From NCBI RefSeq assembly GCF_000091665.1, contig NC_001732.1:1-6484 (forward strand): a stretch of 6,484 nt of DNA, written 5' to 3'. The DNA is from Methanocaldococcus jannaschii DSM 2661. GTDB taxonomy: Archaea > AGJL01 > Methanococci > Methanococcales > Methanocaldococcaceae. How positions within the stretch are numbered: the stretch's first letter is position 1; each line of letters begins with the position of its first letter. Of this stretch, positions 1,934-5,796 are shown piece by piece. A program made the translations under genes and the position numbers. A model generated the notes under the pieces. The model made no database searches, was not told the origin of the DNA, and saw only the letters and a list, made by a program, of their open reading frames with translations.

Positions 1934-3253
1934 ATGTTTGTGGATAGAGAAGAAGAACTAAAAGCATTAAATGAAAAGTTAGATAGTAACAACTTTGAAT
2001 TCATAGTTATTTATGGGAGAAGAAGAATAGGGAAGACAAAGTTGGCATTAAAAAGTGTAGAAAATAGGGAGCATATTTATTACTTAGCAGTTGAGGGAGA
2101 TAATTTAAAGCATTTTAAAAGATATGCTTCAAAGGTTGAACCAACAATTGAATATGCTAAAGAGGATTGGGAAGCATATTTTAACTTTTTAAAAGATAAA
2201 ATCATTATCATTGATGAGTTTCCAAACTTAATTAAAGAAAATCCTAATGTATTATCTCTATTCCAGAGAATTGTAGATATACATTTAAAAAATACAAAAA
2301 CAAAACTTATTATTCTTGGCTCATCAATATCCATGATGGGAGAGAAGGTCTTAAGTTATAAATCTCCTCTTTATGGGAGAAAAACTGGAGTTTTGAAGAT
2401 TAAACCATTGAAGTTTAAGCATTTAAAGGAATTTTTCCCAAAAGCTATTTGGGAAGAGTTGGTTGAAATTTATGGTTTTGCTGATGGTATTCCATACTAT
2501 CTTGAGAAGGTAAAACTTCCATTTTGGGATTACTTAGATAAAGAGATTAAGAGAGTTGATAGTTTTTTGAGATATGAGGTTGATTTCTTGATGAAGTATG
2601 AGTTTGAGGAGCCAACAACTTATAAAAAGATTCTTGAGGCAATAGCTTTTGGTAATCACACACTTGGAGAGATAAAGAATTACTTGGGCTTTAAGCATTC
2701 AGATTTAACACCATATTTAAAAAACTTGATTGAGGTTGAATTTATAGAGAGGCAAACTCCTATTACAGAAAGTGTAAAATCAAAAAAGGGGAGGTATTAC
2801 ATTAAAGATAATTTTATTGCTTTTTATTTTAGGTATATTTTTCCAAATTTATCTGCAATTGAAGAGGGGATTTTTGATATTGAGGAGATAAAGGCTGATT
2901 ATAATCAATATTTAGGATTTGTCTTTGAAAAAGTTGCTAAGGAGTTTTTAATTGAGCTGAATAAAATGAATAAATTACCATTTAAGTTTTTAAAGATTGG
3001 AAGATGGTGGCATAGGGGAGAAGAGATTGACTTAATTGCTTTAAATGATAATGATAAAAAAGCTTTATTTGTTGAGGTTAAATGGAAGGATTTGAAAGAT
3101 AGAGATGTTAAAAAGATATATAGGGATTTGTATAGAAAGTCAAAACTTGTTGGATTAGATGATTATGAAAAATATTATGCCATTGTTGGAAAGAAGATTG
3201 AGAGTAAAGAGAATGGAGATTGTTTATTATTTGATTTGGAGGATTTCTCATAA
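1934..3253 (+). CDS. AAA+ 'archaeal ATPase' family protein with wHTH and C-terminal DUF234-like PD-(D/E)xK module (439 aa)
   Basis: Walker A is GRRRIGKT (2015-2038) and Walker B is IIIIDEF (D94 at 2213). The segment LILGSSIS resembles sensor-1. A wHTH-like segment reads TLGEIKNYLGFKHSDLTPYLKNLIEVEFIER. The C-terminal EIDLIAL...ALFVEVKWK supplies D366 (3029), E381 (3074) and K383 (3080), a restriction-endonuclease-like D..ExK. The N-terminal FVDREEEL is typical of the multi-paralog Methanococcales/Thermococcales family. Confidence 0.9.
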   Translation: MFVDREEELKALNEKLDSNNFEFIVIYGRRRIGKTKLALKSVENREHIYYLAVEGDNLKHFKRYASKVEPTIEYAKEDWEAYFNFLKDKIIIIDEFPNLIKENPNVLSLFQRIVDIHLKNTKTKLIILGSSISMMGEKVLSYKSPLYGRKTGVLKIKPLKFKHLKEFFPKAIWEELVEIYGFADGIPYYLEKVKLPFWDYLDKEIKRVDSFLRYEVDFLMKYEFEEPTTYKKILEAIAFGNHTLGEIKNYLGFKHSDLTPYLKNLIEVEFIERQTPITESVKSKKGRYYIKDNFIAFYFRYIFPNLSAIEEGIFDIEEIKADYNQYLGFVFEKVAKEFLIELNKMNKLPFKFLKIGRWWHRGEEIDLIALNDNDKKALFVEVKWKDLKDRDVKKIYRDLYRKSKLVGLDDYEKYYAIVGKKIESKENGDCLLFDLEDFS

Positions 3254-3264
3254 AAGTTATTGGG

Positions 3265-3453
3265 GTGGAAATTATAGCATTATTGATTGAAGAAGGAATC
3301 ATAATAATAAAAGATAAAAAAGTTGCAGAGAGGTTTTTAAAAGATTTAGAATCATCACAAGGAATGGATTGGAAAGAAATTAGAGAAAGAGCAGAAAGAG
3401 CTAAGAAACAACTTGAAGAGGGGATTGAATGGGCAAAGAAGACGAAATTATAA
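3265..3453 (+). CDS. small charged hypothetical protein (62 aa, GTG start as tracked); possible antitoxin-like partner of the downstream pseudogene
   Basis: The ORF starts 11 nt after the ATPase stop and has a K/E-rich helical composition. Its 3' end is overlapped by 25 nt by the ATG (3429) of the downstream degraded gene. It has no well-spaced SD and a GTG start, so the start and even the reality of this gene are uncertain. Confidence 0.35.
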   Translation: MEIIALLIEEGIIIIKDKKVAERFLKDLESSQGMDWKEIRERAERAKKQLEEGIEWAKKTKL

Positions 3454-3723
3454 TCCTACTAAAAATATTATTAGAAGAATATGATGAAGAAAAAGTAAAA
3501 GCTTTATTAAACTCTTTTCTTGCCACAAAAATTTAGATGTTGAGAATTTTTTTTAAAGAATTCTGCAATATTATTTGAAAAATTAAATAAGAGCAGAATA
3601 TATCTAATTTTCAAAAGAGGGACTAATGATATTTTAGCATACTTCACTCTAACAATCTCTATCTTAAAAATAGTTGATGAAAAAATATCAAAAAAGACAT
3701 TAATTTTGTATAGGATAATTTAA
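3429..3723 (+). pseudogene. frameshifted, 3'-truncated remnant of a GNAT-acetyltransferase-like (TA-toxin-like) gene
   Basis: Three consecutive frames read MGKEDEIIILLKILLEEYDEEKVKALLNSF / SCHKNLDVENFF / LKNSAILFEKLNKSRIYLIFKRGTNDILAYFTLTISILKIVDEKISKKTLILYRII*. The frame breaks fall at the T4 run 3515-3518 and the T8 run 3547-3554, and adding one T at each restores the frame. The pattern F-x-C..(L)D.E.FL...A.....SR.YL....IL.YFTL matches the N-terminal half of GNAT toxins as I recall them. The acetyl-CoA motif (Q/R-x-x-G-x-G/A) is absent, so the gene is truncated. Confidence 0.45.
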
Positions 3724-3761
3724 GTTTAGAATTTAAAATTTATAAATTTTATAATTTAATT

Positions 3762-3787
3762 GTTAATTGACTTTGAAGTCAATTCAC
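3762..3787. repeat. 26-bp palindromic repeat, copy 1 (GTTAATTGACTTTGAAGTCAATTCAC)
   Basis: Read directly from the sequence. It differs from copy 3 at 2 of 26 positions. The TGA stop of the 116-aa minus-strand ORF (3784-3786) lies inside the arm. Confidence 0.9.
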
Positions 3788-4134
3788 CTTATCAATTTCT
3801 CATACTCTTTGTCAATGGCAGTTCTAAGTGCTTCCATCCAATTTTCTGAAAGTTTTATATATCTCCTCGGCCTATTTGCTGGAGCTTCCAATTTTCTTGT
3901 TTTTATTATACCCACTTCCTCCAAATAAGTAAAAACCCTCCTCCATTTTCTCAACACAAGAGTAGGATCTTCCTTCATCGCCTCAGCCAAGGCAATATTA
4001 CACATTTCCATAGGACCACACTTACAATAACCACTCTCAAAATGCCTCTCACAAGCAAAAAGAACTTTTTTAAATTCTTCTGAATGTTCAAGAACTGCAA
4101 TTAATCTAAATAATGTTCTAAGCTCTACACTCAT
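3784..4134 (-). CDS. small Cys/His-cluster protein with C-terminal winged-helix-like DNA-binding region (116 aa); candidate regulator
   Basis: The SD-like GGAGTG lies 5 nt before ATG 4134, and a TATA-like TTTTATAC lies about 27-34 nt upstream on the minus strand. The cluster C28-x2-H31-x5-C37-x-C39-x5-C45 spans 4000-4053. The segment RKWRRVFTYLEEVGIIKTRKLEAPANRPRRYIKLS looks like a recognition helix plus a basic wing. The gene is flanked on both sides by the 26-bp palindrome. Confidence 0.75.
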   Translation of the reverse strand: MSVELRTLFRLIAVLEHSEEFKKVLFACERHFESGYCKCGPMEMCNIALAEAMKEDPTLVLRKWRRVFTYLEEVGIIKTRKLEAPANRPRRYIKLSENWMEALRTAIDKEYEKLIR

Positions 4135-4176
4135 AATCCCACTCCTATAAAGATGCCAAGGTATAAAAGTCTATTA

Positions 4177-4202
4177 GTGAATTGACTTTAAAGTCAATTC
4201 AG
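4177..4202. repeat. 26-bp palindromic repeat, copy 2 (GTGAATTGACTTTAAAGTCAATTCAG); candidate operator
   Basis: The inner 24 bp (4178-4201) form a perfect palindrome. It sits 43 bp upstream of the 116-aa gene start, immediately upstream of a TATA-like element on the minus strand. Confidence 0.9.
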
Positions 4203-4278
4203 CATTATTATATAGTATATCCCTAATTGTTTATATTTCAAACGGAAAAATAAATATTTTGAAAATGAACAATAGCAT

Positions 4279-4419
4279 TTATTTTTCACATTTTTCATTA
4301 GATTCATCTTTTTTAATTGGTTTATCCAACATTTTAGGTATTAAAAGTGTAAGAACAAGAACTAACACTATATACACCAACATTGCAGTAAGAAACACTA
4401 ACAACCTTCCCTCAACCAT
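4279..4419 (-). CDS. 46-aa single-pass membrane peptide (ORF not in the supplied track)
   Basis: On the minus strand GGGAGGT is followed by 7 nt and then ATG 4419. The ORF translates to MVEGRLLVFLTAMLVYIVLVLVLTLLIPKMLDKPIKKDESNEKCEK with stop TAA at 4281-4279. It has a hydrophobic stretch of about 22 residues followed by a charged tail. T-rich tracts follow the stop. It lies between palindrome copies 3 and 2. Confidence 0.55.
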   Translation of the reverse strand: MVEGRLLVFLTAMLVYIVLVLVLTLLIPKMLDKPIKKDESNEKCEK

Positions 4420-4483
4420 TCTAATAACCTCCCAACAAACTAACTAATTTTTTATTCTAAAAAACTTATACTTAGATGCCATT

Positions 4484-4509
4484 GTGAATTGACTTTGAAA
4501 TCAATTCAC
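4484..4509. repeat. 26-bp palindromic repeat, copy 3 (GTGAATTGACTTTGAAATCAATTCAC)
   Basis: Read directly from the sequence. It lies 49 nt downstream of the nurA stop and 65 nt upstream of the 46-aa ORF start on the minus strand. Confidence 0.9.
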
Positions 4510-4538
4510 TCTCAAATTTGTATTCCAACAGTGACATG

Positions 4539-4553
4539 AAAAAGAAAATAAAC
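4539..4553 (-). terminator. oligo-T tract downstream of nurA (archaeal-type terminator candidate)
   Basis: The minus strand reads GTTTATTTTCTTTTT immediately after the nurA TGA stop (4560-4558). Archaeal RNA polymerase terminates at oligo-T runs. Confidence 0.4.
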
Positions 4554-4557
4554 TATA

Positions 4558-5796
4558 TCATTCTCCCAAAACTTCCCTCCCACTCTGGAAAAATAAGCTA
4601 AAATCCCTATTTTTCTCTGATATGTATTTTATCATGAATAAAATTTGCTTTTTAAATTCTTTTTTACTGATTTTCGCCTTATTATGAGCATCTTTCAAAT
4701 ACCTTGGATAACCAAGTTTAGAGTATGGAATAAGCAAACTTATAACTTCTTCAATTGATTTTTTGTTAGTTCTTGGAACTTCAAGTGCTAATATTGGACT
4801 GCTCTCGGCAAATCTAACATAAGTTTTAGGAATCATCTCAAAAGGATTTTCCCTGATAACTTCTAAAAATTTGAAATAATCTCCAAACACATCACAAATC
4901 TTGTTAATGTGCCTCCTACTCCTTTTTTTATTATAACAATCTTCCAATTTAAGAGTAGTGTATCCCCTCCCTCTAAATATTTGATTTAGAAGTGTAGCAT
5001 CAAGTAGGATATCAACATTTATGTTGTTTTCCTTTAATTTTTCTGTAATAATTGAATTCTCAAAATTTTTAGCTATGAATGTACAATCATACTCTAACAA
5101 TCTATTTAAAGAGTGTAGCAATTCTATATACTCAAAATATACTCCCCAACATGCAATTTCCAATCTAGAATTGAGAATATTTGCTGCAAATAACTCTTCC
5201 CTAATATCTTCAACATATTCAGAATACGTACTATCAAACTTTTGAAAAATCTTTATTGCTAAGAGAGTATTATCGTAAATATTCCCATCTAAATTCTCCA
5301 AAACTTCGTCCCAAAAATTATCCAATGATTTTATAAACTTCCAACCCAAATCTTCAGCTAAATCTGGATAAACAGTTAGAGGGTTAGTATCTCCACTTAA
5401 AAGTGGTGGCATTATTAAAGCCCCTGACAAAGTTCCATCTAAAAGGATTAAATCAACATTCTTGCTAACAAGTGTTGCAAGCCTATACTCTAAAGTCATC
5501 ATTAATCTTCTAACTCTATCCTCTTCTTTAAAAAATGGTAGAACACCCAATTCAAACATTCCCTTTTCAATATTCTTTCCAATAGCATAGGATGAGAGGC
5601 CATAAACAATACCACTACAGAATTCAACCTTCCCCCTACTACCATCTACCCCACATAATACCCCTTCAACACCTTTTGGCAACTCATTCCACACTACTTC
5701 ATCATTTATAATATTTCCAATACTGCTTATATTTTTAAACTCCCAATCCACAAAATTGTAAATTATATCCAAATGATTTTTACTAATAATAAACAT
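4558..5796 (-). CDS. nurA: NurA-family 5'-3' nuclease (412 aa from ATG 5796)
   Basis: The NurA-domain hallmarks are GVDGS (D54 of the tracked ORF, 5646-5644), the acidic E in MMTLEYRLA, and LILLDGTLSG (D123, 5439-5437). The gene lies immediately downstream of herA. I moved the start from the tracked 5805, which is a GTG lying inside the SD GGGGTGAT (5808-5801), to ATG 5796, which sits 4 nt after that SD. Confidence 0.85.
   Translation of the reverse strand: MFIISKNHLDIIYNFVDWEFKNISSIGNIINDEVVWNELPKGVEGVLCGVDGSRGKVEFCSGIVYGLSSYAIGKNIEKGMFELGVLPFFKEEDRVRRLMMTLEYRLATLVSKNVDLILLDGTLSGALIMPPLLSGDTNPLTVYPDLAEDLGWKFIKSLDNFWDEVLENLDGNIYDNTLLAIKIFQKFDSTYSEYVEDIREELFAANILNSRLEIACWGVYFEYIELLHSLNRLLEYDCTFIAKNFENSIITEKLKENNINVDILLDATLLNQIFRGRGYTTLKLEDCYNKKRSRRHINKICDVFGDYFKFLEVIRENPFEMIPKTYVRFAESSPILALEVPRTNKKSIEEVISLLIPYSKLGYPRYLKDAHNKAKISKKEFKKQILFMIKYISEKNRDFSLFFQSGREVLGE

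Follow-up and report, generated by a model that had tools for sequence, protein, structure and literature searches.

The window analysed here is a stretch of 6,484 nt at the beginning of the 58-kb large plasmid (bases 1-6484) of Methanocaldococcus jannaschii DSM 2661, whose assembly consists of a chromosome of 1,664,970 bases, a large element of 58,407 bases and a small element of 16,550 bases, at 28-31% G+C. On the minus strand the window carries in order nurA, copy 3 of a 26-bp palindrome, a 46-codon ORF, palindrome copy 2, a gene for a 116-aa protein and palindrome copy 1. The 46-codon ORF runs from ATG to TAA (4279-4419, minus strand) and is preceded by the Shine-Dalgarno (SD)-like motif GGGAGGT (4427-4433, minus strand), located 7 nt 5' of the ATG (4419-4417) with TATTAGA as the spacer. 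Runs of T4 and T5 lie within 35 nt 3' of the stop codon, and the T5 run (4246-4250, minus strand; 29-33 nt past the stop) is a candidate archaeal terminator. An initial annotation of this DNA had described the minus-strand ORF, its peptide, the arrangement of GGGAGGT, 7 nt and ATG, and the oligo-T after the stop, and all of these are exact in the sequence. It had also called the ORF unlisted, which is correct, since the exact 46-aa sequence is missing from a collection of ~15 billion predicted proteins whereas two paralogues from the same genome are present in it. Both M. jannaschii paralogues also belong to NCBI's protein set; the large-plasmid copy alone was overlooked.

Taken by itself, an ORF of this length is within chance expectation in a replicon of 28% G+C. 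The SD motif, taken singly, is a mild predictor: across the genome, GGAGGT followed by 5-9 nt and ATG opens an ORF of at least 40 aa at 34 of 79 sites (43%), vs 20% for all ATGs. It is the comparative evidence that lifts the 46-codon ORF above chance. On this evidence we consider it probable (roughly 0.75) that the ORF is a real large-plasmid gene, unannotated so far, whose product is a single-pass membrane micro-protein.

The proposal that the peptide is transmembrane holds by hydropathy calculation. Residues 1-5 form an acidic to neutral N-terminus, residues ~6-27 a transmembrane (TM) helix and residues 28-46 a tail rich in Lys and Glu. The 19-residue Kyte-Doolittle mean (KD19) reaches 2.96, and the Hessa scale sums to -4.9 kcal/mol over residues 9-27. 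One Lys or Arg lies on the N-terminal side of the helix vs six on the C-terminal side, so an N-out/C-in orientation is predicted. AlphaFold2, run with the family alignment, returned a single helix over residues 2-32 (mean pLDDT 74), and every member of the family described below keeps the TM helix and a positive-inside bias (KD19 2.45-2.96; K+R 0-1 N-terminal and 4-6 C-terminal to the helix). The product would thus cross the cytoplasmic membrane as one helix, with its short N-terminus outside and its Lys/Glu-rich tail in the cytoplasm.

Conservation and loss of the reading frame

Protein searches recovered orthologues of the ORF from metagenome contigs of hydrothermal vents. The intact 46-aa sequences fall into five distinct variants (the window's own, P0014, P0015, P0018 and P0019), present on at least eight contigs and always in the position nurA / ORF / 116-aa gene. 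At the nucleotide level these represent three intact haplotypes, among which the ORF is 84-93% identical with no gaps. When the window was compared with the two diverged lineages, L014 and L019, the ORF block was 84-87% identical and free of gaps vs 50-68% identity and 13-14 gap events in the 140-nt flanks; the bounds of the conserved block are the SD motif and ATG on one side and TAA on the other. The ATG, the TAA and GGAGGT are all kept, with GGAGGT 6-7 nt 5' of the ATG in both diverged lineages. When the observed substitutions were placed at random, start, frame and stop remained intact in both comparisons with a probability of 0.034, which fell to 0.013 when a TM-grade hydropathy was also required to survive.

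Constraint on the residues themselves is weak. Between the window and L014 we counted 14 nonsynonymous and 5 synonymous changes in the ORF, hence few sites, for a dN/dS of ~0.7; L014 vs L019 gave a similar value. Such a ratio is indistinguishable from neutrality, and at the same loci the adjoining 116-aa gene has a dN/dS of 0.16. Synonymous divergence is also lower in the ORF than in this neighbour (0.20 vs 0.47).

These values bear on two other readings of the locus, one of which makes the open frame incidental. The conserved 141-nt block might, on one strand or the other, be a non-coding RNA or act as a regulatory element in cis. The lower synonymous divergence is what constraint at the nucleotide level would produce; TATA-like boxes and T-runs occur on both strands, and in all three lineages no stop interrupts the sense frame or one of the antisense frames. 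Yet the region has no match in Rfam, the putative sense and antisense transcripts fold no better than shuffled sequences (z = -1.6 and -0.1, respectively), the edges of the conserved block coincide precisely with the ATG/SD and the stop codon, and the paralogues described below resemble the ORF as proteins, alike in length and in the arrangement of charges. We therefore regard a non-coding element as quite unlikely. The second reading concerns a plus-strand ORF of 62 aa (4259-4447), which the initial annotation had mentioned as present on the opposite strand, of low complexity and lacking a ribosome-binding site. This ORF exists as described, and it is the longer of the two; its frame, which has its third codon positions in common with the sense frame, gives a dN/dS of 0.3 over the overlap. 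However, it opens with TTG and no SD motif, its low-complexity product has no family matches, in L014 and L019 a stop codon severs it from its start, each lineage has a different end for it, and a stop interrupts the matching frame of the small-plasmid paralogue. We judged it not to be a gene, a gene here being very improbable. Because this antisense frame is unconserved at its ends and broken in the paralogue, and because no RNA family or fold signal was obtained, we read the sense frame as coding, with weak constraint on the identity of its residues.

Close relatives of the plasmid do not all carry the ORF intact. The contigs L010 (59 kb) and L011 (20 kb) represent a plasmid whose overall identity to that of the window is 94%, rising to 99.6% over positions 3200-4800. 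The few differences in this interval include, in both contigs, a 1-nt deletion (CCAATT to CCATT; 4317-4318, minus strand) that shifts the frame after codon 34 and yields a 74-aa product, in which the helix is retained and the tail is swapped for 40 other residues that run into palindrome copy 2. In two further contigs, L012 and L013, the ORF is absent and only 115 nt separate nurA from the 116-aa gene. When aligned with window positions 4177-4509, this interval (L012:2885-3001 and L013:2379-2495) contains one hybrid palindrome in place of copies 3 and 2 with all of the intervening sequence. The hybrid combines the left flank of copy 3 with the right flank of copy 2, the expected remnant of recombination from palindrome to palindrome. 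Given the frameshift and the absence, the gene is dispensable, and it would best be described as accessory: fast-evolving, frameshifted in one sister plasmid and probably deleted by palindrome recombination in another.

Over plasmid positions 1093-7350, L010 is a mosaic, with patches of ~85% identity (6000-7400, 1200-1400 and 3000-3200) and a 1.6-kb patch, the 3200-4800 interval mentioned above, of 99.6% identity, which suggests recent recombination between plasmid lineages.

Conservation of the reading frame, on which the initial annotation had made its gene call depend, is therefore divided but holds in most relatives: the frame is intact in three diverged lineages, frameshifted in one near-identical plasmid and missing from one lineage. 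This pattern would also be expected if the family is real and the large-plasmid copy is a decaying relic, under relaxed selection and heading to loss. The dN/dS of ~0.7 in both orthologue comparisons, the frameshift in L010/L011 and the clean loss in L012/L013 are all in keeping with decay, as is the observation that the large-plasmid copy, unlike its paralogues, is not accompanied by a convergent multi-pass membrane partner. Against this, three diverged lineages have preserved a frame of exactly 46 codons together with its start, stop and SD motif, without a single indel amid indel-rich flanks, an outcome to which neutrality would give a chance of at most a few per cent; moreover, small membrane peptides commonly tolerate many substitutions. 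Decay is thus in our view an unlikely account of the locus, and we retain the reading of the ORF as a gene.

A micro-protein family of Methanocaldococcus mobile DNA

The closer of the two paralogues in the genome, P0001, is a 41-aa peptide encoded on the small plasmid (C3:6826-6948) and is 39% identical to the 46-aa peptide, with which it has in common the same start, an F-F/L-T-A-M-L-x-Y helix opening, a K-P-V/I-K motif and a charged end. Their pairwise score of 68 exceeds the maxima reached in 20,000 composition shuffles (48) and in 20,000 segment-preserving shuffles (59), but a hydrophobic segment of low complexity from another part of the genome comes near it, with a score of 63. The second paralogue, P0017 (40 aa), is chromosomal (C1:1464105-1464227) and adjoins an MCM-like gene; it has orthologues in two other Methanocaldococcus species, in one of them on the chromosome and in the other on the second contig, probably a plasmid. 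With an HMM built from five members other than that of the window, the window ORF was the top non-training match among 29,503 stop-to-stop genomic segments (E = 0.0032, 17.8 bits). The signal that joins it to its paralogues has a modest margin.

The two paralogues and their orthologues resemble the window peptide in several respects: all are 39-46 aa long, with an acidic N-terminus, an F-x-[TI]-A-M-x-x-Y helix start, a single TM segment and a K-rich cytoplasmic tail, and all are located on a plasmid or in a plasmid-like patch. The window peptide differs from the group by its divergence (25-39% identity) and by its setting, between palindromes and beside a regulator gene. It differs also in that the other copies stand tail-to-tail with a homologous multi-pass membrane protein of 139-144 aa, found beside the small-plasmid, chromosomal, G001 and G006 copies; the window copy has no such partner, and no homologue of the partner is encoded on the large plasmid. 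The tail-to-tail pairs, each formed by the 139-144-aa protein and a 39-41-aa peptide, map to C1:1463739-1464239, C3:6383-6948, L029:1492-2042 and L030:308-858. The L030 pair appears to lie beside a repeat array, CRISPR-like judging from the repeated ORF translations. On the small plasmid, a 140-aa protein with an N-terminal C2H2-type zinc finger is encoded directly 5' of the 41-aa paralogue and on the same strand (L002:1681-2103, minus strand), and its C-terminal part has a weak, below cut-off match to Hfq/Sm-like proteins (E = 0.0018).

A full hmmsearch of 1.84 billion representatives returned the family itself and nothing else; the genome and viral collections held no further relatives, and a metagenome scan found only the contig of L011 again. 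The 46-aa peptide would be the most diverged member of a small family of 39-46 aa seen only on Methanocaldococcus plasmids and plasmid-like chromosomal patches.

Palindromes and transcription signals around the ORF

The 26-bp palindrome GTGAATTGACTTTRAAGTCAATTCAC is specific to the 58-kb plasmid, where its 22-nt core is matched by 10 copies if up to two mismatches are allowed and by 11 if up to four are; none was found on the chromosome or the small plasmid, and a reversed control gave none either. Three copies lie in the window, copy 1 at 3762-3787, copy 2 at 4177-4202 and copy 3 (GTGAATTGACTTTGAAATCAATTCAC) at 4484-4509, and further copies are at plasmid positions 10162, 19838, 27892, 30524, 36686, 38027 and 41669. 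Every copy is situated within, or at the very edge of, a gap between longer ORFs. Copy 3 and copy 2 form the upstream and downstream boundaries of a 307-bp cassette that contains the 46-codon ORF, and copy 2 is also the upstream element of the 116-aa gene; in L014, copy 2 is 100% conserved although its flanks diverge.

An SD motif is found in just three of the ORFs whose start lies no more than 200 nt from a palindrome: the 116-aa gene, the 46-codon ORF and the gene of a ParA-type ATPase (259 aa, plasmid positions 28069-28848). In L019, an orthologue of this ParA (92% identity) comes directly after the 116-aa gene. In L014, the same position is occupied by a PIN/AF2212-like pair. Taken with the loss of the ORF in L012/L013, these arrangements suggest that genes adjoining the palindromes are shuffled as units.

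The 116-aa gene (3784-4134, minus strand), which is under stronger constraint than the 46-codon ORF, encodes a protein that combines a Cys cluster with a probable winged helix and has no family match in Pfam, PHROGs or NCBIfam. Its structural model is poor (pLDDT 60), with elements in the order H-H-H-H-beta-beta-H, and the fold matches of the model are weak (E >= 0.04, TM ~0.3); all are MarR-type winged-helix regulators, a hint only that the protein may adopt this fold. We infer that the 116-aa protein is likely the binder of the palindrome, and the palindrome may be the operator or the centromere-like site of a system formed by ParA and a small winged-helix protein. An arrangement of ParA, winged-helix protein and palindrome is loosely comparable to AspA/ParA of pNOB8. 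As the palindrome precedes the 116-aa gene and ParA as well as the 46-codon ORF, the peptide is probably expressed within a palindrome-controlled plasmid-maintenance regulon.

The initial annotation had set the ORF next to a nuclease/ATPase pair and a regulator. The neighbours are indeed nurA, herA and a regulator-like gene; the link to nurA/herA, however, looks incidental, because relatives exist in which nurA lies beside the 116-aa gene without the ORF, and because the paralogues occur in quite different contexts.

Promoters of M. jannaschii carry a TWTATATA box 23 +/- 2 nt before the transcription start site, with the SD motif ~14-19 nt into the transcript (PMC2699501). A putative TATA-like box, TAAGTATA (4467-4474, minus strand), matches this consensus at 6 of 8 positions and lies 9 nt after palindrome copy 3; it would place the start near 4443 and give a 24-nt leader with the SD motif at +11 to +17. 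This promoter assignment is weak, as the L014 and L020 lineages lack the 35-nt segment that holds the box. For the 116-aa gene, TTTATACC occurs at the matching offset from copy 2 and predicts a nearly leaderless mRNA. TATA-like boxes with at least 6 of 8 matches stand beside the palindromes in 11 of 20 cases, a marginal enrichment over a background of 33%.

On the other strand, the TATA-like ATTATATA (4207-4214, plus strand; 7 of 8 matches) points antisense into the ORF, and a T6 run lies at 4448-4453 (plus strand). Together they could, speculatively, frame an antisense RNA across the whole 46-codon ORF; because the DNA is A+T-rich, such motifs are weak evidence.

Possible roles of the 46-aa peptide

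That a single-pass membrane peptide gene had been overlooked, the core of the initial annotation, is borne out by the orthologues, the paralogues, the conserved SD motif, start and stop, and the lack of indels; the toxin, holin and anchor roles that it had suggested are conjectures of lesser strength, graded below. The peptide has no significant match in Pfam, PHROGs, NCBIfam, PADLOC or PDB sequence profiles, and nothing relevant was found in the literature searched on MJECL/MJECS. Matches to oxaloacetate decarboxylase gamma (E = 0.049) and to Pf1 coat protein (E = 1.4) were sub-threshold and were set aside as generic TM similarity. A Phage_holin_2 match of the small-plasmid partner protein (21 bits, below cut-off) was likewise discarded, its three homologues being without it.

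Phage holins and the major coat proteins of inoviruses do have an acidic N-terminus, a helix and a basic C-terminus in common with the peptide, and the Pf1 coat protein is also 46 aa long. However, matches to such proteins are at chance level (E = 1.4 in PDB, E >= 0.04 in PHROG), no holin of Pfam or PHROG matches the peptide, and neither lysis nor virion genes are found nearby, the neighbours being those named above.

There is also a likeness in form to bacterial type I toxins. The search criteria for such toxins given by Fozo et al. 2010 (PMC2887945) are a length of <60 aa, a hydrophobic TM helix and a charged or bulky C-terminus. Like the 46-aa peptide, the Hok and Fst/Ldr toxins are plasmid-borne, shorter than 60 aa and built of one hydrophobic helix with a charged C-terminal cluster, and type I toxins too are overlooked by annotation and patchily present among close relatives. 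The peptide nonetheless has no sequence relation to any toxin family: in Pfam/NCBIfam, the described families (Hok, Fst/Ldr, TisB, Ibs, ShoB, TxpA and others) gave no match at E <= 0.01. Its intergenic spacers are ~140 nt, vs >400 and >250 nt in the screen of Fozo et al. (PMC2887945). In Methanosarcina mazei, small-protein RNAs with cognate antisense RNAs have been described (bioRxiv 10.1101/2025.10.28.685009). That system resembles the present one in that archaeal micro-proteins are made from short transcripts and antisense overlap is possible, here as a possibility raised by motifs; it differs in that the M. mazei proteins are not homologous to the 46-aa peptide, are chromosomal and come with expression data.

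Assuming that the gene is real, a toxin-like membrane-active peptide, acting in addiction or exclusion, is our best, though tentative, guess, in which synthesis of the peptide would be held low by the regulator and possibly also by an antisense transcript. A role as passive anchor or modulator of a membrane partner is conceivable, if somewhat doubtful. Some other role, or none, is an equally tentative option.

[quoted passage not shown] A fully overlapping antisense transcript, which would span the plus strand from the TATA-like box (4207-4214) as far as the T6 run (4448-4453), and the palindrome-binding 116-aa regulator would together restrain the peptide; the module would be wired into the palindrome regulon of ParA and would move between plasmids as a palindrome-bounded unit. 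We know of no type I toxin-antitoxin system demonstrated in Archaea so far, and this one would, if true, be the first to our knowledge. We hold this proposal to be a long shot. As matters stand, the product of the ORF is an ordinary overlooked small membrane protein.

Altogether, the analysis brings to light an overlooked gene in a genome that is among the oldest archaeal references, and defines a small family of membrane micro-proteins restricted to the mobile DNA of Methanocaldococcus. Genetics are now available for the hyperthermophilic methanogen M. jannaschii, and a palindrome-bounded cassette that varies among sister plasmids and has its palindrome in common with a regulator and ParA offers a cheap experimental handle on plasmid biology. 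[quoted passage not shown]
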